NCBI GenBank assembly: GCA_040876345.1
Contig: JBBDPM010000006.1
Coordinates: forward strand, 456,547-520,546
Origin: Candidatus Woykebacteria bacterium
GTDB taxonomy: Bacteria; Patescibacteriota; Microgenomatia; Woykebacterales; RBG-16-39-9b
Reading direction: 5' to 3'
DNA: 64,000 bases
Within the stretch, counting starts at the first letter, position 1; the number at the start of each line of letters is the position of its first letter. The notes under the pieces were generated by a model that saw only the letters and a list, made by a program, of their open reading frames with translations, did no database searches and was not told the DNA's origin. This document shows positions 1-63,249 of this stretch, one piece after another. The position numbers and the translations under genes were made by a program.

Positions 1-501
1 ATCGGCACGAAGGCCGCCAGCATACAGTATCTCCTTGGAAACAAGGGAAAGAGCCGCCTGCTGGAAGCGCTGCTCATGGCGCTCCACCTCGTTATCTACG
101 TTGTGCTGGTGCTCTATGCTCTCGGCCCGGGGCAGGCTGTGGCGTTCATCGTGGTCCATCAGGCGCTGTTTGGGCTGTACCTAGGCCTAGTCTTCGCGCC
201 TAACCACAAGGGTATGCCCCTTCTGGACGGCGATAGCCAGCTAGGCTTCCTCAGAAGCCAAGTACGGACGAGTCGAGACATCATGGCCCACCCAATCACC
301 GACTTCTGGTACGGCGGCCTCAACTACCAGATCGAGCATCACCTCTTCCCCTGGATGCCCAGAAACAAGCTGCGAGAGGCCCAAGTCATCGTCAGGGCCT
401 TTTGCGAGGAACGCTCAATCCCTTACTACGAGACGAGCGCCGCGCGGTCTCTCAAGGAGATCTACCAGTACCTACGCGATGTCAGCGCTCCGGTACGCTA
501 A
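1..501 (+). CDS. Membrane fatty-acid desaturase, C-terminal fragment (front-end type, QxxHH third His box); the frame is open from base 1, so the 5' end lies outside the window
   Basis: Frame 1 is open from position 1 and translates to ...NYQIEHHLFPWMPRN... (His box QIEHH). GC is about 62%, unlike the rest of the window. Confidence 0.6.
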   Translation: MGTKAASIQYLLGNKGKSRLLEALLMALHLVIYVVLVLYALGPGQAVAFIVVHQALFGLYLGLVFAPNHKGMPLLDGDSQLGFLRSQVRTSRDIMAHPITDFWYGGLNYQIEHHLFPWMPRNKLREAQVIVRAFCEERSIPYYETSAARSLKEIYQYLRDVSAPVR

Positions 502-680: not shown

Positions 681-770
681 TGGCGGAGAGGGAGGGATTC
701 GAACCCCCGGTGACGTTGCCGCCACACTGGTTTTCAAGACCAGCACCATAATCCACTCGGTCACCTCTCC
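681..770 (-). tRNA. tRNA-Ser (anticodon UGA), long variable arm, CCA encoded
   Basis: Reverse complement reads GGAGAGGTGACCGAGTGG...CTGGTCTTGAAAACCAG...GGTTCGAATCCCTCCCTCTCCGCCA. Anticodon loop is CTTGAAA and the acceptor stem is 7 bp. Confidence 0.8.
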
Positions 771-771
771 G

Positions 772-860
772 TGGCGGAGGGTACAGGATTCGAACCTGTG
801 TGGCACTTTCGCACCAACGGTTTAGCAAACCGTCGCCTTAAACCACTCGGCCAACCCTCC
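772..860 (-). tRNA. tRNA-Ser (anticodon GCU), long variable arm, CCA encoded
   Basis: Reverse complement reads GGAGGGTTGGCCGAGTGG...ACGGTTTGCTAAACCGT...GGTTCGAATCCTGTACCCTCCGCCA. Confidence 0.8.
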
Positions 861-940
861 AAATGTGCTGGAATTGTAACAAAAAGAGCTTTTAAATTCA
901 ACGAATCAGGAAGATGTTCATTGCTACTTGCTGGGCAAAC

Positions 941-963
941 AAAAAACCCACCTTATAGGTGGG
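941..963 (-). terminator. Rho-independent terminator downstream of ssrA (minus strand)
   Basis: CCCACC / GGTGGG hairpin with a 5-nt loop, followed by a U6 run on the minus strand. Confidence 0.5.
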
Positions 964-1010
964 TATTGTTGCTTAACTTGAGGCTTCGCCTTTGGGGCGA
1001 AGCCAAAAGA

Positions 1011-1375
1011 TGGTGGAGATGCCCGGCTTTGCACCGGGGTCCGTCCAGAATAAATGGATGGGTACTACAAGCTTAGCCAGCCTTTGTGAATCCTTTAAAC
1101 CCACTGGCTGACGAGTTAAGGATTTAAAGTAGGTTATTGATGAATTCTGAATCAACCTAGGTTACCAACCTAAACTGTTCGTCTTGACTTAAGTCACACC
1201 TAAAGGGCTTCGCCAAGAGAAAGCCTCAATAGACGGTCCTATTTACGCAAACGCGTAACGGACGGCCAAATCTTTGTTGGCATTTAATATTTCTTGGAGA
1301 TTTAACGGCATCTACCAAGATTATGCCGGCTTGCACCTTACCCACATACTCTACCGTCGAAATTTAAACATCCCC
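1011..1375 (-). ncRNA. ssrA: tmRNA (SsrA), one-piece form. Predicted tag reading frame is ANKDLAVRYAFA*
   Basis: The 5' end GGGGATGTTTAAATTTCGACGG...GGTGCAAGCCGG matches the tmRNA consensus GGGG..GATTCGACGGG..AAGGTGCATGCCG. The 3' end is a T-arm-like hairpin plus CATCTCCACCA, which forms a 7-bp acceptor stem with a G3:U70 pair. Internal ORF is GCC AAC AAA GAT TTG GCC GTC CGT TAC GCG TTT GCG TAA. smpB lies immediately upstream. Confidence 0.75.
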
Positions 1376-16937: not shown

Positions 16938-19706
16938 TTAGGCAGCCTTGTCAGCTATGAACTTATAGAACTCCTCCTTTTCCAGTCGGGGGATGGTCCA
17001 TTTCCCGAAGTCCTCCCTGACTAATGTGTCGAAGCGCTCCTCGAGCACCTTCTCGGTCACCGTCTCCTCTTGATCGAATACTAGTGACCAATCGATCTCG
17101 GTCATTTTCGCTTCGCCAAACCTCTCCCTCAGCCCCAGGACCTTACCCTTGGACCATTCCACGGAGATCTCCGTGAGCGCGTCGAGCACCAGGAACAGAG
17201 GCATCCCGCCCTTGATCTCTGACTGGGCCGACTTAATGAGGTTTTCGATGTCGCGCAGGTAATGCGGTGTGCGTGTCCAGGAGCGTGCCCAGAACACCTG
17301 GAGGTCGATCTTCCCACACCGCCAGGCAAAGTCGTACGGGCGCTCCATGCTTTGTTGCATTTTGTGCTCGACTTCGGGGTCACCGGCCCTGTTGTACCGA
17401 ACCCCATACTGGCATTCGATCGCTACGTGGGCCGCATCTGGGAAAGTGAACCCACGCACACCCCTCTTCACCCTGGACTTGAAGACCATGTACAGGCTGA
17501 GGATGTCGTCGCAATGAGCGTGAAGCTCATCCAGTTCGTCGGCCATCGCCCAGATCACCTCAGGGGAGAGATCCTCAATCAGGCGCATGATCTTGGGCCA
17601 GACGAAGATCTCGCGGTTCTTCACAGCGCGTCGGAACACCCTGCGCAGACGCCGAAGGATCGGGCCCTTGGGCTGGTTGTTGAAGATCCGTTCCAGGACC
17701 TCCGTTTGGTGGAAGAACGTAACCTCGCGCCCACTCTTACGCGCTAGGTAGGCACTGCTGTCCTCGTCCTCCCCTGCTTCGCGGTCGAGTATGTTTTCTG
17801 GTACCACCTCCTTAACGATGGTGAACTTCGGGGTTCCATCCTCATTCTGGATGACACTAGCAACCCGGACGTATAGTTCGTTCATGATAGTGTCCGAATG
17901 GAGTCCCTTTTGGTTCTTGCCGATGTCCCGCGGGGCGATGAAGAAGAGTTCCTCCTGCTCGAGGATCTGCAACTCACCCCGTGAGTAGTTTCGCACCAGC
18001 CTAGTCTTCTCATGAAGATCTTTGCTGGTGATGATAGCACCCTCCCTAGCCGACACAATGGCACCGCGAATCATTGCGGCACCCTTGCAAACATCCTCAC
18101 GGCGACCGCCAAAGAGGCTGTAGTAAGTGCTGATCGTGTCCATCGGCGTTTCAGAGGCGTAGTTGGCAGTCGAGCGCATCATCGTGCGCCGGCGGTTCAT
18201 AGAACTCCGCCAAGCCCGCTTCTGTTCACTTGTCGCGTTCTCTGGAACTTCCCCCGGGTGTGGGTAGCGTTTGTTTAGCTCCCACCATACCCAGAAGTCG
18301 CCCCAGGTCTGCCGACTCTGACGCCCGCCCCAGTCTTCCCTCAATGCGGCAGCTACGTCTCTGGTGTCATACTCACCACCACCGTACTTCCAGACGCCGT
18401 TCCGGCTCATCCGGAAGTGGCCGTTGAAGCCGATGAGGTCGCGAATCTCCTCATAAGTCGGGTAGTCGATTAGGGAGTCGCTGACGTCCATCTTCTTGTA
18501 CCCAACCGCCCGAGGAGGACGAACTATCCAGCGGATTGAGTCCAAAGCTCGGAACCGTGCCCAAGCCCTGTCCCAGTTCGTCACTGAGCAAGTTACGTCA
18601 GCGTTCGGGCTGAACTGGTCGTACACCATGTCAAACCGGCGGGGATCCTCGACCCTCTCATCGATAAAGTCAGGGCCCCTGTCCGGTCCCCACCAGTCCA
18701 GGTGCTTCTCCAACTCGTCCATCACTTCGCCGTTTTCTGGATCCCTGCCCAGCTTGCGGCTAAGATTCTGGACTATGTGTGCCCGAAGCTTAAGCTTCCA
18801 GTCGTAGCGGCGCTGCCCGTCAAAGAACGCCCTGTCGGCGACGAGGCTCACGAAGTGAAGGAACTCGAAGTCGTTTAGGGCGCCGATTGTGACAACACGC
18901 TCCTTGGTGTTGATGTCGTAGACCGTGAGCCGATCGTACAGCTCACGGATTCCACCACGGGCTGCTCGGCGGACTGCTCGAGGAGCCTTCTCCAGACCAC
19001 CATAAGGCAGAAGCTTGTCGGGGATCACCCAGTTGGGGTTTTCCCTCTGGAACTTCCGCATCCAGTTACGCAGGAGGTGCTTGAACACGCGGGGCGTCTT
19101 GTTGAACACCTCGCGCTCTTGAGTCTCCCTCTCCTGGTGCGTGTCGTCCACCCACCAAAGAGTTTCGAACACGATGTCCTCGTTGGCAAGCAAGATCGAC
19201 CACTCGTGCTCGTTAGGCTCTTTATTAACGACAGTGGCGACGACCTCGAAGTCGACTCCCTCAACCTCCTTATCCTTCGGGGGAAGGTTGAGAGAAATTC
19301 TGCCGTCGGTGAAAACCCGGACCCTCACCCGTTTCTTGGTTTTTTTGCCTGCCTCCTCTACCGGCTTACCGTCCCCACCAATTATGAGGTCTCCCTCCCC
19401 GTCCTTCTTGTATACTTTTTCGGTTATTGCAACCCGCCGGTAGAAGTATCTCTTGAAGGCGGTGACCGGGACTAGGGTGCGGATGATTGTGTACCGCACA
19501 TCTTGGAAGTTGAAGTTGCGATGGTCCGCCTGCTTGGTACCGAGAATGCCCCAAAGCGCAGTGTCTATGGTCGCTACGAAACCGATCTGACCGTTAACGA
19601 TCTCATCAGTGCTAAACCAGCGCTTTTGCTCGGTCCAGCGCACTATACCGAACTCGTTTTCCTCCTGTTCACCGTTTTCGCCTTCCGGTTCTTCGCCGTC
19701 TAGCAT
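16938..19706 (-). CDS. Large orphan protein (922 aa) of unknown function in a GC-rich island
   Basis: Single uninterrupted ORF with an AAGGAGGT RBS 8 nt upstream of the ATG. GC is about 60% against a 40% background. The protein is Trp/Arg/Asp/Glu-rich and has no recognisable catalytic motif (no Walker A, GDD, YxDD or HUH motif seen). Reverse-strand ORFs in this span are GC-induced artefacts. Confidence 0.55.
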   Translation of the reverse strand: MLDGEEPEGENGEQEENEFGIVRWTEQKRWFSTDEIVNGQIGFVATIDTALWGILGTKQADHRNFNFQDVRYTIIRTLVPVTAFKRYFYRRVAITEKVYKKDGEGDLIIGGDGKPVEEAGKKTKKRVRVRVFTDGRISLNLPPKDKEVEGVDFEVVATVVNKEPNEHEWSILLANEDIVFETLWWVDDTHQERETQEREVFNKTPRVFKHLLRNWMRKFQRENPNWVIPDKLLPYGGLEKAPRAVRRAARGGIRELYDRLTVYDINTKERVVTIGALNDFEFLHFVSLVADRAFFDGQRRYDWKLKLRAHIVQNLSRKLGRDPENGEVMDELEKHLDWWGPDRGPDFIDERVEDPRRFDMVYDQFSPNADVTCSVTNWDRAWARFRALDSIRWIVRPPRAVGYKKMDVSDSLIDYPTYEEIRDLIGFNGHFRMSRNGVWKYGGGEYDTRDVAAALREDWGGRQSRQTWGDFWVWWELNKRYPHPGEVPENATSEQKRAWRSSMNRRRTMMRSTANYASETPMDTISTYYSLFGGRREDVCKGAAMIRGAIVSAREGAIITSKDLHEKTRLVRNYSRGELQILEQEELFFIAPRDIGKNQKGLHSDTIMNELYVRVASVIQNEDGTPKFTIVKEVVPENILDREAGEDEDSSAYLARKSGREVTFFHQTEVLERIFNNQPKGPILRRLRRVFRRAVKNREIFVWPKIMRLIEDLSPEVIWAMADELDELHAHCDDILSLYMVFKSRVKRGVRGFTFPDAAHVAIECQYGVRYNRAGDPEVEHKMQQSMERPYDFAWRCGKIDLQVFWARSWTRTPHYLRDIENLIKSAQSEIKGGMPLFLVLDALTEISVEWSKGKVLGLRERFGEAKMTEIDWSLVFDQEETVTEKVLEERFDTLVREDFGKWTIPRLEKEEFYKFIADKAA

Positions 19707-20532
19707 CGTGTAAACCTCCTTGGGTTGCTAAACCCCTCAGGCAAGAGCGCTAGCGCAACAAGACTGAGAGGACGCTGTCCAGCATACGTTCGTGAGGGTT
19801 GAAAACCCCTGAGCGGTAATACCGCTTTGGAGCCTATTCCCTGTATCACTTGGTGTATGCTAGAGCAGCAGCAACACCAAGGGGAGTTTGAATGTTAGTT
19901 CTTGGATTTAGGATCTAGGATTTTAACTTAAATCCAACATCCTGAATCTAATATCCAAAATCCCCCTGGCGTTACCCCGCTGTCTAGCGGAAACCAAGGA
20001 AGTCTTTTTGTTCGTTTTACTTAATTTTTGGCGAATCGTAATGTTATAGGTTTCCAATTCGCCTTATATTCGCTTGTTAAGGTACTCACCATCGCAAGTT
20101 TCAACTTACGAAAATGGGCTCTGACTAACGACCTTTCGTTAACCAGAGCCCACCTTCGGGGACATATGCAAAAACTCACCATGGAGGTGGCTCTGGTATA
20201 ATTAATTTCTTAATTCTAAGTTCTGCTTCGTTCATTGTTCTTAATTAACTACTTATTACTAATAACTAAGTTGCTAGTTTAGCACAAATCAGCTTCAATG
20301 TCAATCCTATAGGATCCTCGGTGATTAAATTCATTCGCTTCGCTCAAGTAATTTAGGTACTCTTGGGTTCTGCGGGCGGGCGTAGATTCTAGGTTTCTAT
20401 TCGTGTACTTTACGATACAGTATGAGTCGGTTGATTTCGAATCTACTATCGACCATAATATACCCTACAGTTTAATCAAAGGTATTTTTCGGCGAAGAAT
20501 TCTCGAAGCCAGCTGAAGGTTAATCAAACAAT

Positions 20533-25379: not shown

Positions 25380-26486
25380 CTAGCGCTTGACTTCAGACAC
25401 GCCCCCATCCTTGACTGAATAAATCTTGGCTCTCTCCAAAACTTTATTGGGGAAAAATTCCTTAGAGGTAGCCGTGATAATACTCTGCTGACGATAGACT
25501 ACTTCTAAGATATGTTCCCGATTGTTTTTATCAAATTCGCTCAGAATGTCGTCTAAAAGTAGGGTGGGTTTCTCGCCCCGGACTTTTTCGATGTAATTAG
25601 TCTCCACCAATTTCAGAGCGAGAGTGGCAATACGCTGCTCGCCACGAGATCCAAAAGTCCCAATATCTTCTTCCAAAATTTCATTGTCCTTGAAAATCTC
25701 CAGCAACACTCGGAAATCATCCCGGTGGGGCCCAAAACTAGTTAATCCTCTTTCAACATCAATCTTTTTTCTCTTAGCTAGATTCTGGGCGAAAAAATCC
25801 CCTATTTCTTCATCTTTAACCACTGCTTCAGCGAAAGGGCGATAATTTATTCTAATCTCGGATCCAGAGAGTCCCCGCCCAATTTTTTTCAATAAGTTGT
25901 TGGCGTAATGATAGAAAGAGATCCGTGCTTTCCAGACTAAGTTTCCAGAATCTACTAACTGCCTGTCCCAAACGCTAAAGTCTTGGGGGAATCCCTCTCT
26001 TTCAAGCCAAAGCAACTTATTCCTTCGTTTCATTACTTGACCAAACCTGGCTAGGTGGTAAAGATAGGTTTTATCTGTCACCGATAAAACTTGATCTAAA
26101 AAACGCCGCCGCCTATCTGGCGGCCCTGAAACAACCTCGATGCTCTCCGGAGAAAACAAAACGATTGGGAACAGCCCAATTATGCGCTGCTTTTTGTTTT
26201 CATTGTTGTCCAAAAAAACTCTCTTGCCCTCTCTCGTGACGATAGTTTTTATCTTGTGGGGCCCAACCGTTCCCGCTAAAAGGGCGTGCTCGGATCCCCA
26301 GTTGATCAACTCTAAATCTTTACCAGCTCGAAATGACTTAGTGGTTGAGAGAAGATGGACTGCCTCGATAATGTTAGTTTTGCCTTGCGCGTTATCGCCC
26401 ACGAACAAATTTATCTTATCGCCGAAGGAGATTTTTAGATTTTTAAAGTTTCTAAAATCGGAAATTTCTAGATTCTCAATCCACAT
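25380..26486 (-). CDS. recF: DNA replication and repair protein RecF
   Basis: N-terminal …NFKNLKISFGDKINLFVGDNAQGKTNIIEAV… (Walker A); synteny recF-dnaN-dnaA. Confidence 0.85.
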   Translation of the reverse strand: MWIENLEISDFRNFKNLKISFGDKINLFVGDNAQGKTNIIEAVHLLSTTKSFRAGKDLELINWGSEHALLAGTVGPHKIKTIVTREGKRVFLDNNENKKQRIIGLFPIVLFSPESIEVVSGPPDRRRRFLDQVLSVTDKTYLYHLARFGQVMKRRNKLLWLEREGFPQDFSVWDRQLVDSGNLVWKARISFYHYANNLLKKIGRGLSGSEIRINYRPFAEAVVKDEEIGDFFAQNLAKRKKIDVERGLTSFGPHRDDFRVLLEIFKDNEILEEDIGTFGSRGEQRIATLALKLVETNYIEKVRGEKPTLLLDDILSEFDKNNREHILEVVYRQQSIITATSKEFFPNKVLERAKIYSVKDGGVSEVKR

Positions 26487-27593
26487 TTACGTTTGGGTGC
26501 GGACCGGCATAACTATGTAAATAAACGACTCATCCTCGGGAGATTTTATTTGGGCTGGATTTGTGGGTCCGGCAAATCTAATCTCTACTGACTCTCCTGG
26601 TATACTTGTTAGCCCCTCAGATAAATAGCGGCTATTAAAAGCTATTTGAATTTCTTGCCCCTCTATTTTATTTGCAGCTAGTTCGACCGAGCCCTCTCCA
26701 ACCTGACCTGATGATGCTAGAAGCTTAACTTCTCCTTCTCCACTGACATTCATGCGCAAAACGTTTCCCAAGTCCCGGGCGAATGTATTAACTGTTTTAA
26801 TCCCATTCAATAATTCCTCCTTGTTTATCACCATCGTGGTAACAAACGACTTTGGTATTACTGAATCAACATTGGGAAATTCTCCTGCTAAAAGCTTAGT
26901 GTAATAGTCAATGTGGCCGGCTGAAAAAACAACTAAATTGTCTTCGCTAGATATATTTATTTTTAGGCTCTCCTCCTCGAGGCCCCCAATAATTCTCTCT
27001 GCTTCAACAAGAGCTCGGGCCGGAATTATCACCTCATCTAGCTTCATTTTCTTAAGTTCTTTACTAGCTAACCTATAACCGTCCGTTGCTACCAGTAGGG
27101 TTTTCTCCCCGTCCTGTTTAACCAGAACACCAGTTAGTACCGGTCTGCCTTCATCTTGGCTGGCCGCAATACTTACTGCCTTGGCCGCCCTTAGAAAATC
27201 TTCCTTAACAACGCTGCTTGCTTTAGCGTCCATAACTCTGGGTGGCTCCGGGAACTCTTTAGCCGATATAGTCGGTATTTTGGCCTCCGTCTTGCCGGAT
27301 TTAATCTCGGCTGTCTCTTGGACCACTGCAATTGTGATACTCTCATCTATTAAAGTGCTGATGAACTCGAGTAGAGTTCTTGCCGGCACAGTTATTTCTC
27401 CTTCGGTCACCACTTTTGCTGGAGCCCAGGTTTTAATTGTGGTATCTAAGTTTGTTCCAATTAAAGTTACCCCGCCTTCCTGGGTTTTTAGAAGTACGTT
27501 TCCTAAAACCGGTGTAGTTGGACGTGCCGAGATTGCCTTTGCGGCGATACCGACATTTTTGAGGAATGTTTCTTTACTAATTTCTATCCGCAT
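26487..27593 (-). CDS. dnaN: DNA polymerase III beta sliding clamp
   Basis: 368 aa, MRIEISKETFLKNVGIAAKAIS…; synteny. Confidence 0.85.
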   Translation of the reverse strand: MRIEISKETFLKNVGIAAKAISARPTTPVLGNVLLKTQEGGVTLIGTNLDTTIKTWAPAKVVTEGEITVPARTLLEFISTLIDESITIAVVQETAEIKSGKTEAKIPTISAKEFPEPPRVMDAKASSVVKEDFLRAAKAVSIAASQDEGRPVLTGVLVKQDGEKTLLVATDGYRLASKELKKMKLDEVIIPARALVEAERIIGGLEEESLKINISSEDNLVVFSAGHIDYYTKLLAGEFPNVDSVIPKSFVTTMVINKEELLNGIKTVNTFARDLGNVLRMNVSGEGEVKLLASSGQVGEGSVELAANKIEGQEIQIAFNSRYLSEGLTSIPGESVEIRFAGPTNPAQIKSPEDESFIYIVMPVRTQT

Positions 27594-27704
27594 AGGCTTT
27601 CTTATTAGCTGTTTATATTTAAATTAGTAGTATTAGACAGTGTGAATTTGTTAATATTACACTAGCTCCAGCCTAAAATCCAGAAGAACTAGTGTTGAAA
27701 ATGG

Positions 27705-27724
27705 TGTGGACAGAATGTGGAAAA
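27705..27724. promoter_or_regulatory. DnaA-box-like motifs (TGTGGACAG, TGTGGAAAA) in the dnaA-dnaN intergenic region; candidate oriC
   Basis: Two 7-8/9 matches to TGTGGATAA, 2 nt apart, with a third (TGTGAAAAC) at 27745-27753. Confidence 0.35.
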
Positions 27725-27741
27725 CCACCACAAAACGAAGC

Positions 27742-29112
27742 CTATGTGAAAACCCTGCTTCTGATTTCCCCAACAATTTCACATGTTTTAGGAGAAGTCG
27801 CCAGGCTAGCTAAAATCTTATTCACAGAATATATCACGCTAGTATGATCAGCTTTGTTTAAAACCTCAGCAATATTTACAAGGCTTAGTTTTAAATCAGT
27901 GCGTAATATATACATTGCTATTTGGCGGGGAAATACAAGATTACGCTTTCGGCTCTGACCATTTAAGTCTTGGACGGAGAGTAGGAAATGCTTGGCCACC
28001 TCATTTAACACAAGTTTGGGGTCCGCTTTTTTTAGTCGCTCTCTGTTTGTTAGATCAATCACCTCGCTAAGCAGTGCCTGTGAGATTGGGCGGCTCGTTA
28101 CTCTGGAGTATGTGAAAAGTCTAACTAGGCCTCCCTCCACGTCTCTAATACTTCCAGGAAAAGCTTCGGCGAGAGTTCTAATAATTGCCTGGGACAAGCT
28201 TAAGTTTTGGGCTTTGGACTTATGGGCAACAACCGCCTCCCGCAATTCTAACTCTGGAGACCCGATGTCCGCAACCATTCCACTTTGAAATCGCCCTTTA
28301 AGACGCTCGTCCACTCTCTTAAGAACAACAGGCGGTCGGTCACTAGCCAAAACGATTTGTTTTCCGGTAGCAAAAAGGGAGTTAAATGTATGAAAAAGTT
28401 CTTCTTGAGTGGCCTCCCGGCCGGATAAGAATTGGACATCATCAATTAGCAACACATCCACGCCGCGGAATTTTTTTCTAAAATTAACCGTAGTTTTAGC
28501 CTGAATTGAGGCGACAAGTTCGTTGGTAAAATCTTCACACGTGCAGTAGAGAGTTTTTAGATTATTGTTTTGGTAAAGCTTTTCCTGGGCGATTGCTTGG
28601 ATGAGGTGAGTTTTTCCGACGCCCGCCCCTCCATAAACAAAAAACGGGTTTGGGCTGTTTCCGCCTCCGACAATTGCTCTCGCCACGGCGTAGGCAAGCT
28701 CATTACTTTTTCCAACAACAAAATTATCAAAACTGAAATTTGGGTTAAGACGAGCCTTAGTTAGGGCCTCTTCGAGTACGTCTTTTTCCGTGTTTGGAAA
28801 AAGTGGCGCGTGTTGGTATCTGTCGATAGGAGCCGTTCTTCTTCTAACAACCTCCTGTTTGATCATAGGGTTCACGGTAAAAGCTATATCAACTGTTCTA
28901 CCGGCCACCTGTTCTATAATTGCTTTTATCTGCGCTTGGTAGCGCGACTCTAACCAGTTTTTAACGTAAGGGGAGTTACACCCAATCTCTAGGATATTTT
29001 CATCCCAAGAATTTATCGCTGTTTTTCCTTTAAACCAAGTTTGAAAATTGGCAGAAGATAAGTTTAATTGTAACTGCGCAAGCGCGGATTCCCACAAAGT
29101 ACTGTTATCCAT
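27742..29112 (-). CDS. dnaA: Chromosomal replication initiator DnaA
   Basis: AAA+ Walker A GGAGVGKTHL, Walker B LLIDDVQF, C-terminal helix-turn-helix. Confidence 0.9.
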   Translation of the reverse strand: MDNSTLWESALAQLQLNLSSANFQTWFKGKTAINSWDENILEIGCNSPYVKNWLESRYQAQIKAIIEQVAGRTVDIAFTVNPMIKQEVVRRRTAPIDRYQHAPLFPNTEKDVLEEALTKARLNPNFSFDNFVVGKSNELAYAVARAIVGGGNSPNPFFVYGGAGVGKTHLIQAIAQEKLYQNNNLKTLYCTCEDFTNELVASIQAKTTVNFRKKFRGVDVLLIDDVQFLSGREATQEELFHTFNSLFATGKQIVLASDRPPVVLKRVDERLKGRFQSGMVADIGSPELELREAVVAHKSKAQNLSLSQAIIRTLAEAFPGSIRDVEGGLVRLFTYSRVTSRPISQALLSEVIDLTNRERLKKADPKLVLNEVAKHFLLSVQDLNGQSRKRNLVFPRQIAMYILRTDLKLSLVNIAEVLNKADHTSVIYSVNKILASLATSPKTCEIVGEIRSRVFT

Positions 29113-40952: not shown

Positions 40953-41026
40953 GGTGTCTAAGGGAATTATACACAAAATTGAGATTAGAGACCGAGGTAG
41001 GAGTAAATTACCTATCCTATAGCAAC

Positions 41027-41055
41027 TTGACAACACTAATTGGATGTTGTACAAT
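41027..41055 (+). promoter_or_regulatory. Strong sigma70-like promoter (TTGACA-N17-TACAAT) reading into the GC-rich mini-island
   Basis: Perfect -35, 17-nt spacer, 5/6 -10; no + strand housekeeping gene lies downstream. Confidence 0.5.
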
Positions 41056-41182
41056 ACGCGTTATCTTGAAGGAGGAGGTCGCGCGTGAGACAGCGCAACA
41101 AGGACCCGGCCTAAGGGCTCAAATTGGGCTCCTGAAACAAGCTCTCGAGGGTCGAGATCTGTAACCGAAAAAGGAGGCCGTT

Positions 41183-41317
41183 ATGGACCGGCGCGACACA
41201 GGCTCCCGTAAAGGCAAGTTCAGCTCCAAGCCCTTCGCCACGCTCTCACCGGACGACGCGATCAGCGCGGCCAGCCGCGGCGACCAGTACGGCGCTGTCG
41301 ACGACGACACCTGCTGA
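41183..41317 (+). CDS. Small GC-rich ORF (44 aa) with strong Shine-Dalgarno (AAAAAGGAGG-N5-ATG)
   Basis: Hand translation MDRRDTGSRKGKFSSKPFATLSPDDAISAASRGDQYGAVDDDTC*. Preceded by a 9-codon uORF (GTG at 41075, MRQRNKDPA*) with RBS GAAGGAGGAGG. Confidence 0.3.
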   Translation: MDRRDTGSRKGKFSSKPFATLSPDDAISAASRGDQYGAVDDDTC

Positions 41318-41385
41318 TCGACGCGGCCTACGGATCTTTGACGGCGAATCCGTAGGTTAGGATCCATCAACCATCGAAGCCGTCA

Positions 41386-41455
41386 CTCGCCCGCCCTCAC
41401 CGATTTGGGCATATTCATGTTGATATGTTCACAGGTGGGGGCGGGCGTTACTCTT
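41386..41455. terminator. Long GC hairpin (CGCCCGCCCTCAC…GTGGGGGCGGGCG) plus T-run; probably a bidirectional terminator
   Basis: 13-bp imperfect inverted repeat with a loop of about 35 nt, then TTACTCTTTTT; it abuts the stop of the minus-strand NYN gene. Confidence 0.4.
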
Positions 41456-41456
41456 T

Positions 41457-42008
41457 TTAGAGTTGTTCTGGACCAAAATTGAGTTTCTTAGGAGATTGCC
41501 TTTCTTTCGCGGGGAATACATACCTTTCGTAGTTCTCATCCATATCCACAAATTCATCAACTTCCGCAAGTAACTTTGCCGAAGTACTTTTTCCAAAAGC
41601 AACGGCTTCCACTCGGTGACCTTGGTTTCTAAGATATTCTACAAGCGGAACATAGTCCCCATCGCCTGAAACTAGTATTAAAACGTCAAGGCGTGGAGCA
41701 AGACGAATCATATCCAGCGCAATTCCCACATCCCAATCACCTTTTTTTACGCCTCCGGGAAATATTTGTACTTCTTTTGATTTCACTTCGAAACCGGCTT
41801 TTTCTAAAGCGTCAAAAAATGATTGCTCTTCCGGCATAGAAGCTTTTATTACATAGGCAATAGCTCTAATTAATTGTCTGCCGGCAACTGCGGTATCTAA
41901 AATATTGCTGAAGTTGACCCTTTTCCCGTACAAATTCTTGGCAGAGTAATACATATTTTGAACATCAACAAAAACGCCTACTCTCTGATTTGGATTTTTC
42001 TTTAACAT
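41457..42008 (-). CDS. NYN/LabA-like domain protein
   Basis: VGVFVDVQNMYYSAKN…LILVSGDGDYVPLVEYLRNQGHRV. Confidence 0.7.
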   Translation of the reverse strand: MLKKNPNQRVGVFVDVQNMYYSAKNLYGKRVNFSNILDTAVAGRQLIRAIAYVIKASMPEEQSFFDALEKAGFEVKSKEVQIFPGGVKKGDWDVGIALDMIRLAPRLDVLILVSGDGDYVPLVEYLRNQGHRVEAVAFGKSTSAKLLAEVDEFVDMDENYERYVFPAKERQSPKKLNFGPEQL

Positions 42009-46501: not shown

Positions 46502-47137
46502 ATGGAACAGAACGCACCGCCTCTCCAACCCACTAAAGCTAGTTCTACACCAAGTAAAAAACCAGTTCTGATAACAGCAGCAACCTTCATGGTAGTAATT
46601 ATTTTGGCGGTTTTTGGTGTTTACAATTGGCAGCAAGGCGTGGTGGAAGAAGTTAAAGGTGAAAAAGAATCCTTGGAATCTAAAGTAGCGTCGCAGAGTG
46701 CCGGTCTCACCGCGCTTAAAAAGGAAAGCGTAGAGCTTAAATCTAAAGTAAACTTCCTGGAGGGAAAATTAAAAGAAGCCACCGCTAGTGCAAATTTTGA
46801 AGTTGGTGAATTGACACTATCTATAAAGAAAACTAGTAGGTCCAATTACACTGGCGATGTTACACCCGACACAAATACGGTAAGTGTTGAAATAAGTGCC
46901 GTGAACGACACTGAACAAACATTATTCATTTCCAAATCAAGCTTTAAATTAAAAGACGACGCTAATCGTAGTTACCTAGTTGGTATTACCCCGCCTGGCT
47001 ATAGTGAATTGCAAGATCAACAAGTGCAACCTGGAGAGACAATTGTAGCTTACGTTGCTTTTGATGACGTTCCCAAGAACAAGACTTCCCTCACCCTTTT
47101 CTACAATTCAAAGACCTTCAGAATTACTGCAAAGTAA
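46502..47137 (+). CDS. Membrane-anchored protein with coiled coil and C-terminal DUF4352-like beta domain
   Basis: TM, heptad region, …SISAVNDTEQTLFISKSSFKLKDDANRSYL…. Confidence 0.5.
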   Translation: MEQNAPPLQPTKASSTPSKKPVLITAATFMVVIILAVFGVYNWQQGVVEEVKGEKESLESKVASQSAGLTALKKESVELKSKVNFLEGKLKEATASANFEVGELTLSIKKTSRSNYTGDVTPDTNTVSVEISAVNDTEQTLFISKSSFKLKDDANRSYLVGITPPGYSELQDQQVQPGETIVAYVAFDDVPKNKTSLTLFYNSKTFRITAK

Positions 47138-48587: not shown

Positions 48588-48790
48588 TTCCCTCAAGCCA
48601 AAATTGACTATAAGACGTATAATTGATCTAGTTTGCGTGAAAAGCTGACAAACTACGCTGGAAGAAAGCGGGAGGTCGCGCATGAACTAGCACCTAATAA
48701 TAAGAATAAATTTGCGGAAAGGAGGCCGTATCGGAGTCCAGCAACCAACGATCGGTAAGTAACAAAAGTTCATCCGAGGAGGTTTTTTCC

Positions 48791-49627
48791 ATGGCACTTG
48801 ACTTATCCGCTGTCGGTAAGGAACTACCGCCAGCCACCTACGAGTACACTGATCGAGACGTCATTCTTTATGCCCTCGGCGTCGGCGCAACGGCTCGGGA
48901 TCTGGCGTTCGTTTACGAAAGGGGTGGCCTTCTGGCGTTGCCAACGTTCGGAGTCGTTCCGGCGTTTTCGGCGCTGACGTCGTTGGGTACGGTGCTGGAG
49001 TTCAACCCGCTATCACTGCTTCATGGTGAACAGCGCATCGAACTGCACGGGCAGATCCCGACTAGTGGGGTTCTGACTACGCAAGGCAGAATCACCGGCA
49101 TTTACGACAAGAGGAGAGGCGCTTTGGTGGTGATCGATGCCGACACGAAAGACGCAGAAGGTAGGACACTGGTCACGAATAGGTTCGGCGCGTTCATCCT
49201 TGGCGAGGGCGGTTTCGGGGGAGTGCGCGATCCGAACGCCTCAAAGCAACACGTCCTACCGACTCGTCCGCCTGACTACACGATGGCGTACAAGACTTCA
49301 CAGAACCAGGCAGTACTCTACCGACTCTCCGGCGACCTTAACCCCTTGCACATCGACCCAGGGTTCGCGAAGCTCGCGGGGTTCGAGCGGCCGATTCTGC
49401 ATGGCCTCTGCACCTTCGGTCACGTGGGGTGCGCCGTGCTGCATGCCTGCTGCGGCGGAGACCCATCGCGACTCAAGATCCTTGAAGCGCGTTTCTCCGG
49501 CGAGGTTTACCCGGGCGAGACGATCATTACGGACATCTGGCAGGATGGTTCGACAGCGATTTTGCAAGCGCGAACGGAGGAGCGTGACAAAGTCGTTATT
49601 TCGAACGCCGCCGCGACGATCGCCTAA
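48791..49627 (+). CDS. MaoC-like (R)-specific enoyl-CoA hydratase/dehydratase, double hot-dog (GC-rich)
   Basis: YRLSGDLNPLHIDPGFAKLAGFERPILHG hydratase-2 motif; about 62% GC; GAGGAGG RBS. Confidence 0.7.
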   Translation: MALDLSAVGKELPPATYEYTDRDVILYALGVGATARDLAFVYERGGLLALPTFGVVPAFSALTSLGTVLEFNPLSLLHGEQRIELHGQIPTSGVLTTQGRITGIYDKRRGALVVIDADTKDAEGRTLVTNRFGAFILGEGGFGGVRDPNASKQHVLPTRPPDYTMAYKTSQNQAVLYRLSGDLNPLHIDPGFAKLAGFERPILHGLCTFGHVGCAVLHACCGGDPSRLKILEARFSGEVYPGETIITDIWQDGSTAILQARTEERDKVVISNAAATIA

Positions 49628-49754
49628 TGCTGTTCACAAAATCCCACGGGGATTACCAGAGTCACAGACTCTTGAAAAAGGAGGTGATCGGCTGAATAGC
49701 ACATAACAGTACCAAACGACTCGAGCGAGACTAGCATGAATAGGAGGCTCACCA

Positions 49755-50645
49755 ATGAACTTACTTCAGGGAAAAGTCGCCATTGTCACAGGGTCAGGTG
49801 GCGGTCTCGGTGAGCAGTACGCGCTCGCATTGGCAGGAGCTGGTGCGAGGGTGGTGGTGAACGATCCCGGCTCTGGCAGGGACGGTATAGGTGGTACCAT
49901 CACGATGGCCGACACAGTCGTGAAGAAGATAAGAGACGTCGGTGGCGAAGCTGCAGCGAACTACGATTCTGTTGCCACCATGGGAGGCGCCGAGGCCATC
50001 TTCAGCACGGCCATGGACGCCTACGGCCAGGTCGACATCCTGGTGAACAACGCCGGGATCCTCCGCGATGCGGCCTTCCACAACATGACTGAGGAAGAGT
50101 GGGACGCCGTGATAGCGGTCCACTTGAAGGGGACCTTCTGCATCACTCGCCTCGTCTTTCCTCACATGCGTGAGCGAGGGAGCGGAGTGGTCATCGGCAT
50201 CTCCTCACCCACCGGTCTCACCGGTAACTTCGGCCAGGCGAACTACGGCGCTGCCAAGGGGGGAGTCTGGGGACTCATGAATTGCCTGGCTAGGGAGGGC
50301 TATCGTAGAGGGGAGGTGGATCCCTTCGCACGCGTTTTCACTGTGGTGCCGGTGGCATTCACTCGCATGACGGCCGATCTGCCCCAGTTCAGTAGTGAGG
50401 AGGCAAAGGCCCAAACCGACCCCAAGTTCGTGGCGCCGCTGGTTGTCTACCTTGCCAGCGATTTGTCGGCAGGTATGACTGACAAGACCTTCAGCGTCAT
50501 GGGCAGCCGAATCCGGGAGATGAGGATGGTCTCCAGCCACGGCGCGACGAAGGAAGATGACGGAGGCCTCTGGAGTGCACAGGAGATCTCCAGACGAATG
50601 AGCGAGATCTTGCTCGCAGATAAAGAGGCCGCGAGCGCTGGATAA
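49755..50645 (+). CDS. SDR-family oxidoreductase (HSD17B4 / 3-hydroxyacyl-CoA dehydrogenase-like) (GC-rich)
   Basis: TGSGGGLGEQYALALAGAGARVVVND, NNAGILRD, Y…K (YGAAK). Confidence 0.8.
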   Translation: MNLLQGKVAIVTGSGGGLGEQYALALAGAGARVVVNDPGSGRDGIGGTITMADTVVKKIRDVGGEAAANYDSVATMGGAEAIFSTAMDAYGQVDILVNNAGILRDAAFHNMTEEEWDAVIAVHLKGTFCITRLVFPHMRERGSGVVIGISSPTGLTGNFGQANYGAAKGGVWGLMNCLAREGYRRGEVDPFARVFTVVPVAFTRMTADLPQFSSEEAKAQTDPKFVAPLVVYLASDLSAGMTDKTFSVMGSRIREMRMVSSHGATKEDDGGLWSAQEISRRMSEILLADKEAASAG

Positions 50646-50679
50646 CACGGAAGACAGGGGGGGGTAGCAAATCTGCTCA

Positions 50680-50712
50680 ACGCAAGGGCGAGACCACAAG
50701 TCCGCCCTTGTT
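50680..50712 (+). terminator. Hairpin (AAGGGCG…CGCCCTT) plus partial T-run closing the GC-rich island
   Basis: 7-bp GC stem, 12-nt loop, followed by GTTCCCCTTTG. Confidence 0.35.
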
Positions 50713-50717
50713 CCCCT

Positions 50718-50746
50718 TTGACAAACCTAAATTAAAGATTTACAAT
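50718..50746 (+). promoter_or_regulatory. Sigma70-like promoter (TTGACA-N17-TACAAT), 9 nt before ATG 50756
   Basis: Same architecture as the promoter at 41027. Confidence 0.45.
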
Positions 50747-61412: not shown

Positions 61413-61760
61413 TTAAGTAGCAATAAGTAAGATTCTAAGGAGGGAATAGCTTATCACTGCTCCGGAAAACAGGGTTGCCCAAGTAATTATTTGGGTAAGA
61501 ACTGGGGATTTAAGCAGTTTTGCAATAAATTGGTTTATTAGAAAGATCAAAATTAAAAGGGAGGGGATAATAAAAAGCCACCTTGGCTCGGCTAACCTTT
61601 CAACCCCCCACACCTTTGAATACCACAGTGGGACTTGAGGCGGGAGTTTCTCAAGATGGGACCAGACTAAATAACTGGAAGCAATAATTATTATTAAAGA
61701 TACAAAAGTTGCAGGGGCATTAATCGGGCGTAGAATCTTTAGAAAGTTCATAAATTGCAT
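61413..61760 (-). CDS. Small membrane protein
   Basis: 3 TM helices. The start is uncertain because this gene overlaps the 3' end of the upstream GT39-like gene. Confidence 0.3.
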   Translation of the reverse strand: MQFMNFLKILRPINAPATFVSLIIIIASSYLVWSHLEKLPPQVPLWYSKVWGVERLAEPRWLFIIPSLLILIFLINQFIAKLLKSPVLTQIITWATLFSGAVISYSLLRILLIAT

Positions 61761-63249
61761 AATCTTCTGAAATGGCAAAGAGATTATAACTTCTCTTAAC
61801 AAACCTGTCCAATTCAGGGAATGGTGGAGATCCTAAGGTATCTAAAATTATATATTTTGGCTTGCTTCGTTCTAGGTCGTTGACCACCCTATCCTTAGCA
61901 GTACTACTGCCTGATACATGAAAGGCCGTTATATATCTTGAAGCTGGGTCAAGCCCTGATAGGAAGTATATTGAAGGTTGGTTTGCCCAAAGGTAAATTT
62001 TTTCATTGGCTGACTCTAGGTTTTTGCATTCAGGTTGATCTCCTTTGGCACATCGTGTAAATAGAGATGCCACAGCGTAGTTTCTACTTGTGTTTGCATC
62101 GAAATTATTTTGAAATTCTTCCACGGAGATTCGGTTAGTGGCTAAGTTAAAAAAGTTGGGGTAGTAGGCTAGGACGTTTACATTGGGTTTAAATCCGAGA
62201 AGGGCACTTAAAATCAAAACAATACCGATAATAGAGAAACCAAATTTCCTGAATCTTACATCAGTGAGAGCTTTAGCTAGTATTATAGAAAAAGGGGCTG
62301 CTGCCTGTATTAAATAATGAAAATAGGGTCTTCCTCCAAAAACAGCCCCGTAGTAACTGAATGCTAGCCACAAAACTGAAATTTCTACAGCACCTGGCAC
62401 ACTAGCAGCCCTCTTTTTAGAGAGAAAAAACCTCCAAAAGTAATAAAGAACAATTGCAATCACGGGCAAGAATTTTAGTACTAAAAGGCCGTTTGGAATA
62501 ATAAATTCATTACCATAATTTGTATATGATGCGTTAAAGAAGAAAGCGGAATTTATGTAGGAAGAAAGAGTACCCCTTGAAGCAAAGTACACTAAAGTAA
62601 GAGCAAAGGGAATTGCAAAGCCCACTATCAATTTAAATAAGTTTACAAGCGTTGGCAGAGCCCCATTTTTACGTACGAAGAGAAAAACGAAAACAAAAAA
62701 AGCCGCAAAATCAAAAATTGCTGGAAACTTCAGAAGAAGAGCCAAGGAAAAAAATATTCCCGAGATAAGAAAGTGGTTTCTTAAACCGAAAAGTAAAGCA
62801 AGACAAGCGGGAAGGATAATTAGAATCTCGCTGTTAACGATATTTCCTTCAGTCAGTGGAGTAGTAGTTAAGGCGGCTAGTATTATCAAACCGAAAAACG
62901 CAGTTTTTTTGTCGAAGAGTTCTTTTACCAACAAATAAAAACATACCAATGTTGGGATCATCCATATACCTAACAGAAACTTAAATGACCAAACCATATC
63001 ACCGAAAAGCTTAGTAGACCAGGCTGCCAAGTAATAAATTCCAGGGGTTTTATGATCGAAAATTTCAGCGTAAAGCAAGCCACCCCGATTAATTTTTTGC
63101 CCAATCACCAAATAAATTGCCTCGTCTCCATACCAGAGAGGCTCAAGTAAAGAGGGAATACGGAGTATGAAAACAATAAGAACAATTAAAATAAGAAGTC
63201 TTTGGGAAGAGGCGAACTGTTCTATTTTACCTAAGTAATTTTTCACCAT
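61720..63249 (-). CDS. GT-C glycosyltransferase, GT39/GT83-like (ArnT/PMT_2 family)
   Basis: …LWYGDEAIYLVIGQKI… (DE motif), …FDHKTPG…; about 12 TM. Confidence 0.6.
   Translation of the reverse strand: MVKNYLGKIEQFASSQRLLILIVLIVFILRIPSLLEPLWYGDEAIYLVIGQKINRGGLLYAEIFDHKTPGIYYLAAWSTKLFGDMVWSFKFLLGIWMIPTLVCFYLLVKELFDKKTAFFGLIILAALTTTPLTEGNIVNSEILIILPACLALLFGLRNHFLISGIFFSLALLLKFPAIFDFAAFFVFVFLFVRKNGALPTLVNLFKLIVGFAIPFALTLVYFASRGTLSSYINSAFFFNASYTNYGNEFIIPNGLLVLKFLPVIAIVLYYFWRFFLSKKRAASVPGAVEISVLWLAFSYYGAVFGGRPYFHYLIQAAAPFSIILAKALTDVRFRKFGFSIIGIVLILSALLGFKPNVNVLAYYPNFFNLATNRISVEEFQNNFDANTSRNYAVASLFTRCAKGDQPECKNLESANEKIYLWANQPSIYFLSGLDPASRYITAFHVSGSSTAKDRVVNDLERSKPKYIILDTLGSPPFPELDRFVKRSYNLFAISEDYAIYELSKDSTPD

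Follow-up and report, generated by a model that had tools for sequence, protein, structure and literature searches.

A foreign MFE-2-type hydratase-dehydrogenase gene pair and its related leaders in a Candidatus Woykebacteria chromosome

The peroxisomal enzyme MFE-2 (HSD17B4) is D-specific and joins an R-specific hydratase and a (3R)-hydroxyacyl-CoA dehydrogenase in a fused chain. The actinobacterial steroid side-chain pair is made up of Hsd4A, an MFE-2-type short-chain dehydrogenase/reductase (SDR), and Hsd4B, a MaoC hydratase. Candidate Phyla Radiation (CPR) bacteria are metabolically minimal and are believed to draw lipids from the cells of a host, and gene acquisitions from other bacteria have reportedly been found in Saccharibacteria. 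Here a gene pair of the MFE-2 type is described from a stretch of 64,000 nucleotides, referred to as the window, of a Candidatus Woykebacteria bacterium (GenBank assembly GCA_040876345.1, contig JBBDPM010000006.1, positions 456,547 to 520,546 of the forward strand). The pair is a foreign two-gene unit fixed in a CPR chromosome, and a family of three leader copies ties it to a second GC-rich islet at 41 kb. The best explanation of the locus as a whole, to which we give a probability of about 0.72, is a fixed island of horizontal gene transfer that carries an MFE-2-type pair in a CPR chromosome and whose leaders descend from one ancestral module. The case is a well-supported but fairly ordinary horizontal gene transfer, and the small leader repeat is its unexplained part.

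The hydratase-dehydrogenase island

The island consists of two intact open reading frames (ORFs) on the plus strand, which fill a GC-rich stretch of 2.1 kb. The GC content was 58–63% across ~48.66–50.71 kb (~60% for the island as a whole) compared to a window average of ~41%, with a step up at ~48.66–48.79 kb and a step down at ~50.71 kb. Values of 59.1% and 60.0% were measured for the hydratase and SDR ORFs; a preliminary description of this DNA had correctly called both GC-rich, at a somewhat higher figure of ~62%. The GC content at third codon positions (GC3) was 0.68 for the hydratase and 0.72 for the SDR, compared to 0.33–0.41 for the flanking genes of the host genome and 0.87–0.98 for the closest relatives.

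The first gene (48791..49627, + strand) encodes a hydratase 2 of 278 aa, a predicted R-specific enoyl-CoA hydratase of the double hot-dog, MFE-2 type. Its Shine-Dalgarno (SD) site, GAGGAGGT, is located at 48776..48783 (+), 7 nt before the ATG. Comparison with Pfam revealed the domains MFE-2_hydrat-2_N (PF22622) at residues 17–138 (2.3e-37) and MaoC_dehydratas (PF01575) at residues 157–271 (1.8e-26), giving an N-terminal non-catalytic hot-dog and a C-terminal MaoC hot-dog within a single chain of ~280 aa. The closest structural match in the PDB was the human MFE-2 hydratase 2 domain (1s9c, E 1.8e-69, residues 6–276). Hydratase 2 enzymes are recognised by the motif [YF]-x(1,2)-[LVIG]-[STGC]-G-D-x-N-P-[LIV]-H-x5-[AS], which holds the catalytic Asp and His, and by the glutamate of HGEQ. 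The corresponding segments of the island protein, YRLSGDLNPLHIDPGFA and LHGEQ (HGEQ), line up with their human counterparts when the sequence is aligned to 1s9c, and the protein is predicted to convert 2-enoyl-CoA to (3R)-hydroxyacyl-CoA.

The second gene (49755..50645, +) encodes an SDR of 296 aa, an MFE-2-type (3R)-hydroxyacyl-CoA dehydrogenase, and is preceded by the ribosome-binding site AGGAGG at 49742-49747 (+), again 7 nt before the ATG. The Pfam domain adh_short was matched at 1.4e-39. The best PDB match was 2et6 from Candida MFE-2 (7e-101, residues 6–289), followed by the human and rat HSD17B4 structures 1zbq (2.9e-56) and 1gz6 (4.4e-56) and then 3oml; FabG-type entries gave weaker matches (E at least 1e-39) than these MFE-2 dehydrogenase domains, the C-terminal extension included. 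The cofactor and catalytic motifs TGSGGGLG, NNAGI, SSPTG and NYGAAK (S...YGAAK) are intact in the 2et6 alignment, and the predicted reaction is the oxidation of (3R)-hydroxyacyl-CoA to 3-ketoacyl-CoA. The Pfam matches and the structural matches to 1s9c, 2et6, 1zbq and 1gz6 agree with the earlier assignment of the two ORFs as a split MFE-2-type hydratase/dehydrogenase pair. Acting together, the two enzymes could catalyse the two central steps of D-specific beta-oxidation in either direction, and a role in the processing of acyl chains scavenged from host cells is plausible.

Direct reading of the sequence upstream of the island revealed a -10-like box, TATAAT, at 48618..48623 (+), with TTGACT only 8 nt further upstream and no properly spaced -35 element; a promoter scan gave no full sigma-70 match at this position. 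The box, AT-rich and of the host type, is likely to mark the start of the island transcript. At the opposite end a GC hairpin, CAAGGGCG...CGCCCTTG at 50683-50710, is followed by TTCCCCTTT, the whole element spanning 50683..50719 (+). The last 81 nt of the island gave a folding energy of -33.1 kcal/mol (z = -3.35), a stability equalled by none of 200 shuffled sequences. The hairpin with its tail TTCCCCTTT was not flagged in a consensus terminator scan because the T-run is interrupted. It is probably a terminator and the right edge of the island, and a host-type promoter of the next host gene lies directly 3' of this edge. The GAGGAGG/GGAGG ribosome-binding sites and the closing GC hairpin of the preliminary description were thus both recovered. 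Just 3' of the SDR stop codon there is a poly-G tract (50657..50664, +) of eight residues in the window and nine in GCA_040881185.1, which may be a homopolymer difference of sequencing or assembly or a true length polymorphism.

The island has a HAD hydrolase gene on one side and a gene pair for a small membrane protein and a serine hydrolase on the other, and is surrounded by CPR housekeeping genes that include TsaD, GroES/EL, LeuRS, dnaA/dnaN and pilins of the type IV secretion system (T4SS) type. The left junction was identical, base for base, in Logan single-run assemblies and in a 586-kb contig of GCA_040881185.1, an NCBI metagenome-assembled genome (MAG). The right junction was identical in that assembly except for the G8/G9 tract, the sole difference over the ~32 kb compared, which makes the window part of a sister assembly. 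The island was present in every strain-level contig with an identical HAD protein next door (6/6), and its proteins are named as Candidatus Woykebacteria by NCBI, each under three accessions, and also occur in Logan data. One Logan contig, SRR27977661_363945, breaks off within the SDR gene, at position 50061 of the window.

The origin of the two genes was examined using the 120 best matches listed for each protein, most of them without a name. No named CPR protein was present among these besides the query itself, and the named matches came from Chloroflexota, Binatota, Kryptonia and Myxococcota. The best hydratase matches were 66–72% identical, the named ones being Dehalococcoidia/Chloroflexi proteins at 68%. 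In a rough neighbour-joining (NJ) tree the hydratase was placed inside a clade of 95 members with all of the named Chloroflexota matches, with the Binatota and Kryptonia proteins outside. The gene order M20-3HCDH-MaoC-SnoaL, in which M20 is a peptidase, was found whole or in part around four hydratase relatives of the Chloroflexota/Dehalococcoidia lineage. For the SDR the best matches (67–69%) lie on GC-rich contigs; the best named match with a stated identity was from Myxococcota at 59%, and the list also holds a longer, partial Chloroflexi protein for which no identity value is stated. The pair had been described as typical of Actinobacteria, and no Actinobacteria were present among the named best matches of either protein. 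Taken with the named relatives and the NJ placement, an actinobacterial origin is not supported. We infer a donor of high GC content outside the CPR, with Chloroflexota/Dehalococcoidia as the nearest sampled lineage of the hydratase.

A GC3 of ~0.7, compared to ~0.9 in the relatives and ~0.37 in the host, together with a best identity of ~70%, indicates either an old transfer or an unsampled donor, and points to a transfer that was not very recent. In the closest relatives examined the hydratase and SDR genes were not neighbours in any of the eight contexts (8/8), and the idea that the pair is a conserved unit of a donor is not supported. Either no genome of the true donor has been sampled, or the two genes were brought together within the recipient lineage. 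A Dehalococcoidia MAG, GCA_040882355.1, from an accession series adjacent to that of the Woykebacteria MAG, encodes a hydratase 68% identical to that of the island. Chloroflexota with this hydratase family may co-occur with this CPR bacterium, and the accession numbers, taken alone, suggest that both MAGs may come from a shared study.

Leader copies and the 41-kb islet

Three copies of a leader module were identified in the window. Copy I48a (~48655..48750, +) contains a GGGAGGT SD site, a mini-ORF of two codons, an SD site without a start codon and, after these, a degenerate version of the ribosome-binding site of the SDR gene. Its first motif, GGAGGTCGCGC at 48671..48681 (+), is identical to positions 41074-41084, and is followed by the mini-ORF ATG AAC TAG at 48682..48690 (+), 6 nt after the GGAGG core. 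The second motif, AAAGGAGGCCGT at 48718..48729 (+), is identical to 41170-41181 and is followed by ATC in place of a start codon. Copy I48b (49668..49761, +) occupies the 127-nt spacer between hydratase and SDR genes and contains AAAGGAGGTGATC (49677-49689), the mini-ORF CTG AAT AGC ACA TAA and then the real SDR ribosome-binding site. Removal of one C from the I48a mini-ORF gives ATG AAT AGC ACC TAA, which matches that of I48b. Copy I41 (41062..41114, +) contains TCTTGAAGGAGGAGGTCGCGC and then a GTG mini-ORF of nine codons (GTG plus 8 codons) at 41085-41114. The layout common to the three copies is an SD site, 5–6 nt, a start codon overlapping TGA, and a mini-ORF. The two motifs shared by the 41- and 48.6-kb leaders had been noted in the preliminary description, and both were found where it had placed them; the copy in the hydratase-SDR spacer is an addition.

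The window has just two occurrences of GGAGGTCGCGC, at 41074 and 48671, and two of AAAGGAGGCCGT, at 41170 and 48718, in conserved order, and no more copies of either were found even when one mismatch was allowed. The motifs are consequently unique to these islands in the window and are not an abundant, generic ribosome-binding context. Two shared words of at least 11 nt between the 41- and 48.6-kb leaders were obtained in 1 of 20,000 dinucleotide shuffles (~5e-5), and in 16 of 100,000 shuffles (1.6e-4) when all GGAGG cores were held fixed, in agreement with the earlier judgement that the sharing is very unlikely by chance. Among 1,770 pairs of upstream regions these two leaders were the only pair with two such words. 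Local alignment of I48a with I48b gave a score of 21 compared to 10.9 +/- 1.8 for shuffled sequences (z ~5.7; 0/3000 as high), and nhmmer gave E = 5e-6 for I48a. The pattern GGAGGT-N5-6-NTGAA(N)TAGCACMTAA matched I48a and I48b only, with 0 matches in shuffles.

A profile built from the three copies (nhmmer) revealed no fourth copy, whether in the window itself, in 8.5 kb of sequence outside it or at the loci of relatives, and the module was not found upstream of any relative's gene that was read. The I48a/I48b pattern had 0 matches in viral contigs and four in JGI metagenome contigs, where ~2 chance matches were estimated for a pattern of this specificity; these four were judged to be chance matches, and at least one lies within an SDR coding sequence. 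The leader was also considered as a small protein. The motif does fall in one frame in the two long ORFs (EVAR/HE..A), but the matches favour no codon position and the frame is interrupted by stops in I48b, and this reading was rejected as unsupported. An extended homology of I48a to the start of the 44-codon ORF described below, or to the SDR coding start, was not significant.

The 41-kb islet is preceded by a host-type promoter, TTGACA-17-TACAAT at 41027..41055 (+), which has 11/12 consensus matches. The second motif, AAAGGAGGCCGT at 41170..41181 (+), is here the real ribosome-binding site of an orphan ORF of 44 codons (41183..41317, +) with a GC3 of 0.87–0.89, according to how the stop codon is treated. 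No Pfam match was obtained for this ORF. A HMMER search of 1.84 billion representative proteins returned, besides the ORF itself, only two weak matches. Both were to proteins that are longer and unrelated, one with TPR repeats and the other with segments repeated internally, and both were judged to be noise. Two tandem GC hairpins (41327-41356 and 41388-41447) and a T-rich tail close the islet (41327..41447, +); they correspond to inverted repeats I1 and I3 and gave a fold of -63 kcal/mol (z = -5.44).

Within 41066-41317 an ORF of 32 codons, initiated by TTG, starts ~10 nt past the -10 box in frame with the 44-codon ORF, from which it is separated by one TAA and six codons; its GC3 of 0.53 is not coding-like, while the value of 0.89 for the 44-codon part is. 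The sequence CAAAATTGA occurs at 40974-40986 and 41474-41486, forming a direct repeat of 12/13 positions 500 nt apart, and at 48598-48611, on the left edge of the 48.6-kb island; three of its five occurrences in the window are at island edges. Its candidacy as a target-site duplication or att site was rejected, the alignments of the flanks being within chance. The sequence AAAGGCCGTTATATATCTTGAAG (61918-61945) consists of the 10-mers AGGCCGTTAT and TATCTTGAAG, from the two ends of the 41-kb leader, placed back to back. It sits in a host ORF (61720-63249, - strand) and is probably a coincidence.

The start regions of the host genes were compared with those of the islands, with host start codons taken from ORF calls, so that the SD counts are approximate. 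An SD-like tetramer of any kind at -18 to -5 was present in 7/57 host genes in the window and a strong one in 4/57; all of the GC-rich island genes (4/4) have strong AGGAGG(T) sites. Twelve of the 57 host genes have a -10-like box no more than 20 nt from the start, and many host genes have a TATAAT-like box 7–12 nt upstream of the start codon; the starts at 46502, 33631, 50756 and 47952 are examples of the host starts compared. This suggests that leaderless, near-leaderless or SD-independent initiation is widespread in the host. With strong SD sites on the island genes and few in the host, SD-rich leaders are a foreign trait in this genome.

Explanations of the island and its leaders

In the explanation that we prefer, DNA from a high-GC, non-CPR donor, Chloroflexota-like in the case of the hydratase, would have been inserted into a Woykebacteria chromosome and then fixed. 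Transcription would run from the TATAAT at 48618 to the 50.7-kb hairpin, and both genes would be translated from their strong SD sites. I48a, I48b and I41 would be diverged copies of one ancestral module of 40–95 nt. Three diverged copies imply that the three foreign ORFs share a history, either through one donor operon or vector or through duplication of the leader within the recipient. For the module itself our preferred guess is an upstream mini-ORF that is translated, or else a site of ribosome loading, perhaps derived from an SD-ATGA gene junction. That it acts as a functional adaptor, a reusable leader dedicated to ribosome loading that makes foreign SD-dependent genes expressible or regulated, or that it marks an unrecognised route of cassette capture by which the pair was assembled stepwise out of separate donor loci, is a long shot.

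Several observations weigh against this explanation. Outside the exact motifs I41 and I48a gave no significant alignment (378/1000 shuffles were as good). The alignment of I41 with I48b was marginal (42/2000 shuffles) and not significant over longer sequence, and in its own genome the module was searched for in only ~72 kb. No Rfam match was found at the gathering score, nor at E <= 1 in either leader, and leader folding was unremarkable (z of -1.2, +0.8 and -1.1); with no match and no unusual stability, the leader was rejected as a structured or known cis-regulatory RNA. A scan of genome contigs by means of the SurA-like neighbour found no close relative without the island, that is, no empty site, and the only relative that it returned from the genome collection was 44% identical and had no synteny. 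The insertion is consequently deduced from composition and phyletic pattern. There is no integrase or transposase in the 64-kb window or its flanks, no tRNA adjoins the 41- or 48.6-kb island, and no convincing flanking repeats were seen. The SDR matches pin down no donor lineage. No other beta-oxidation gene (acyl-CoA dehydrogenase, thiolase or ligase) was seen in the window, which makes the metabolic role speculative.

The alternative that survives best, though we consider it unlikely, is that the leader modules are non-functional, decaying relics of a gene-gene junction in a donor operon (an SD site within the end of an upstream gene, with an ATGA/GTGA stop-start overlap), carried in with each gene or duplicated later, and that their likeness to regulatory leaders is now superficial. 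The arrangement SD-N5-6-[A/G/C]TGA, a classic overlap layout, is present in all three copies. The mini-ORFs are broken in different ways, having two codons, a CTG start or nine codons, and the start codon after the second motif has been lost in I48a (ATC). G-to-A changes make up several of the differences that separate I41 from I48a, as expected for decay in an AT-rich genome. However, two perfect blocks of 11–12 nt in leaders that otherwise do not align look more like selection than neutral decay, and no matching junction was present upstream of any relative's gene.

Much less probable is the capture of the islands as cassettes, in an integron-like manner or by a small mobile element, with the module or CAAAATTGA as the recombination site. 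This would account for three unrelated ORFs that each have the same 5' module and a hairpin ending, and the separation of hydratase and SDR genes in relatives suggests a stepwise assembly. The placement of CAAAATTGA at island edges, the 12/13 direct repeat either side of the 41-kb islet and a T4SS-like cluster in the window also fit. However, the window and its flanks contain neither integrase nor transposase, and the islands are scattered among core genes and form no array. The spacers show no attC-like R''/L''-L'/R' layout by eye, no dedicated attC search having been made; the similarities of the flanks are within chance, and no further copies were found in viral or metagenome collections, the four metagenome matches being attributed to chance.

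It is slightly less probable still that the shared motifs are a coincidence of canonical SD sites, complementary to the 16S rRNA tail, with a few flanking bases. Both motifs are built on GGAGG, a 10-mer is common to 56 of the 1,770 pairs of upstream regions, and 1.7% of the shuffles that keep the SD cores in place contain at least one shared 11-mer. Two colinear words of at least 11 nt are nevertheless rare in such shuffles (the 16 in 100,000 given above), and the flanks CGCGC and CCGT are not complementary to the anti-SD sequence. The coincidence would also have to extend to I48b, an independent third copy, which matches I48a over ~95 nt (0/3000 shuffles), and neither motif has another occurrence in the window.

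A chimeric assembly, contamination or an engineered construct has a negligible probability. The compositional boundaries are sharp and one Logan contig breaks within the SDR gene (50061), but both junctions are the same in independent assemblies (the left in single-run Logan assemblies and the 586-kb MAG contig, the right in GCA_040881185.1 apart from G8/G9), which effectively excludes a chimera or construct. Each of the island proteins also has three accessions at NCBI, and the host-type promoter of the next host gene immediately abuts the right edge. Of the common origin proposed in the preliminary description for the two islands, the shared descent of the leaders stands, and a common construct design or assembly artefact does not.

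Other GC-rich material and comparison with known systems

The suggestion that all of the GC-rich material belongs to lipid metabolism did not hold, since it includes a 922-aa gene without a Pfam domain, the 44-codon orphan and a sortase islet. The 922-aa gene (16938-19706, - strand, 57% GC), an orphan, is the largest GC-rich gene. Ahead of it lies a non-coding stretch of unusual length, ~620–800 nt (19707-20532), with hairpins and a repeated GGGGTTT(T/AG)CAACCC motif, for which Rfam gave matches at noise level only, and the gene adjoins a T4SS-like cluster (PrgI, TraC-like, VirB4-like) at 20.5–25.4 kb. The acyl-CoA desaturase gene (window 1-501 together with L010 11374-12423) encodes 349 aa, with a GC3 of 0.75 and the SD site AAGGAGGT; its leader does not contain the module. 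This islet abuts two tRNA-Ser genes and a tmRNA gene (window 681-1375), a classic setting for island insertion. The sortase islet (L010 14150-16300, ~2.8–4.9 kb beyond the window start) has a GC content of 53–65% and encodes a sortase and a protein of 180 aa; it includes ~500 nt without a clear ORF and has tRNA genes on both sides. Two further GC-rich patches, at L010 13.3–13.6 and 16.3–16.4 kb, were rejected as islands and are native tRNAs. From the sortase islet it appears that small imports of GC-rich DNA are common in this genome. A likely replication origin is marked by recF-like, dnaN and dnaA genes (25380-29112, - strand), followed by rnpA and yidC (+) at ~29.1–29.4 kb, and the cumulative GC skew turns at ~28–29 kb, near the recF-like/dnaN/dnaA block.

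The fixed import of two acyl-CoA enzymes, with a desaturase islet nearby, hints that some CPR bacteria modify scavenged acyl chains, and the Chloroflexota affinity of the hydratase is a testable clue to the companions of this Woykebacterium. Strong SD sites on imports in an SD-poor genome offer a simple way to recognise foreign genes in lineages of this kind. The repeated leader, if functional, would bear on how foreign genes are expressed in streamlined genomes. These findings overturn no current views, and a search of the literature for SD usage in CPR bacteria and for beta-oxidation genes imported into CPR genomes found nothing of direct relevance to the locus.

When the island is compared with peroxisomal MFE-2/HSD17B4 (1s9c, 1zbq and 1gz6; 2et6 and 1pn2 from Candida tropicalis), both modules are matched over their full length with the motifs kept, and the expected D-specific chemistry, R-hydratase and (3R)-hydroxyacyl-CoA dehydrogenase, is alike. 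The main differences are that the island encodes the modules in two separate genes with the hydratase first, whereas the fused eukaryotic enzyme has them in reverse order, that it has no SCP2 domain, and that it lies in a CPR setting with no other beta-oxidation genes in view. Hsd4A and Hsd4B resemble the island in being the same two enzyme types as separate proteins; in contrast, the island has CPR housekeeping genes where steroid-catabolic neighbours would stand, and its named nearest relatives include no Actinobacteria.

The closest kin of the island hydratase are the stand-alone MaoC hydratases of Chloroflexota/Dehalococcoidia (P0014, P0021), which have 278 aa and the identical domain pair. 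Unlike the island gene, these have a 3HCDH-type dehydrogenase and a SnoaL-like gene as neighbours and in no case an MFE-2-type SDR, and they have short leaders without the module and a GC3 of 0.91–0.98 compared to 0.68.

For the leader, the nearest described arrangement is that of the short upstream ORF initiation regions that boost cassette expression, such as ORF-11 in attI1 of class 1 integrons. A strong SD site and a very short ORF upstream of a captured gene are common to both; the present locus has no integron platform, no integrase and, as judged by eye, no attC. In its general form the island resembles the horizontally acquired genes of other CPR bacteria, in which episymbionts with small genomes have gained metabolic genes that are detectable by composition and phyletic pattern. 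It differs from these in that the imports are islets of 0.4–2.8 kb with one or two genes and no mobility genes, two of which share a private SD/mini-ORF leader.

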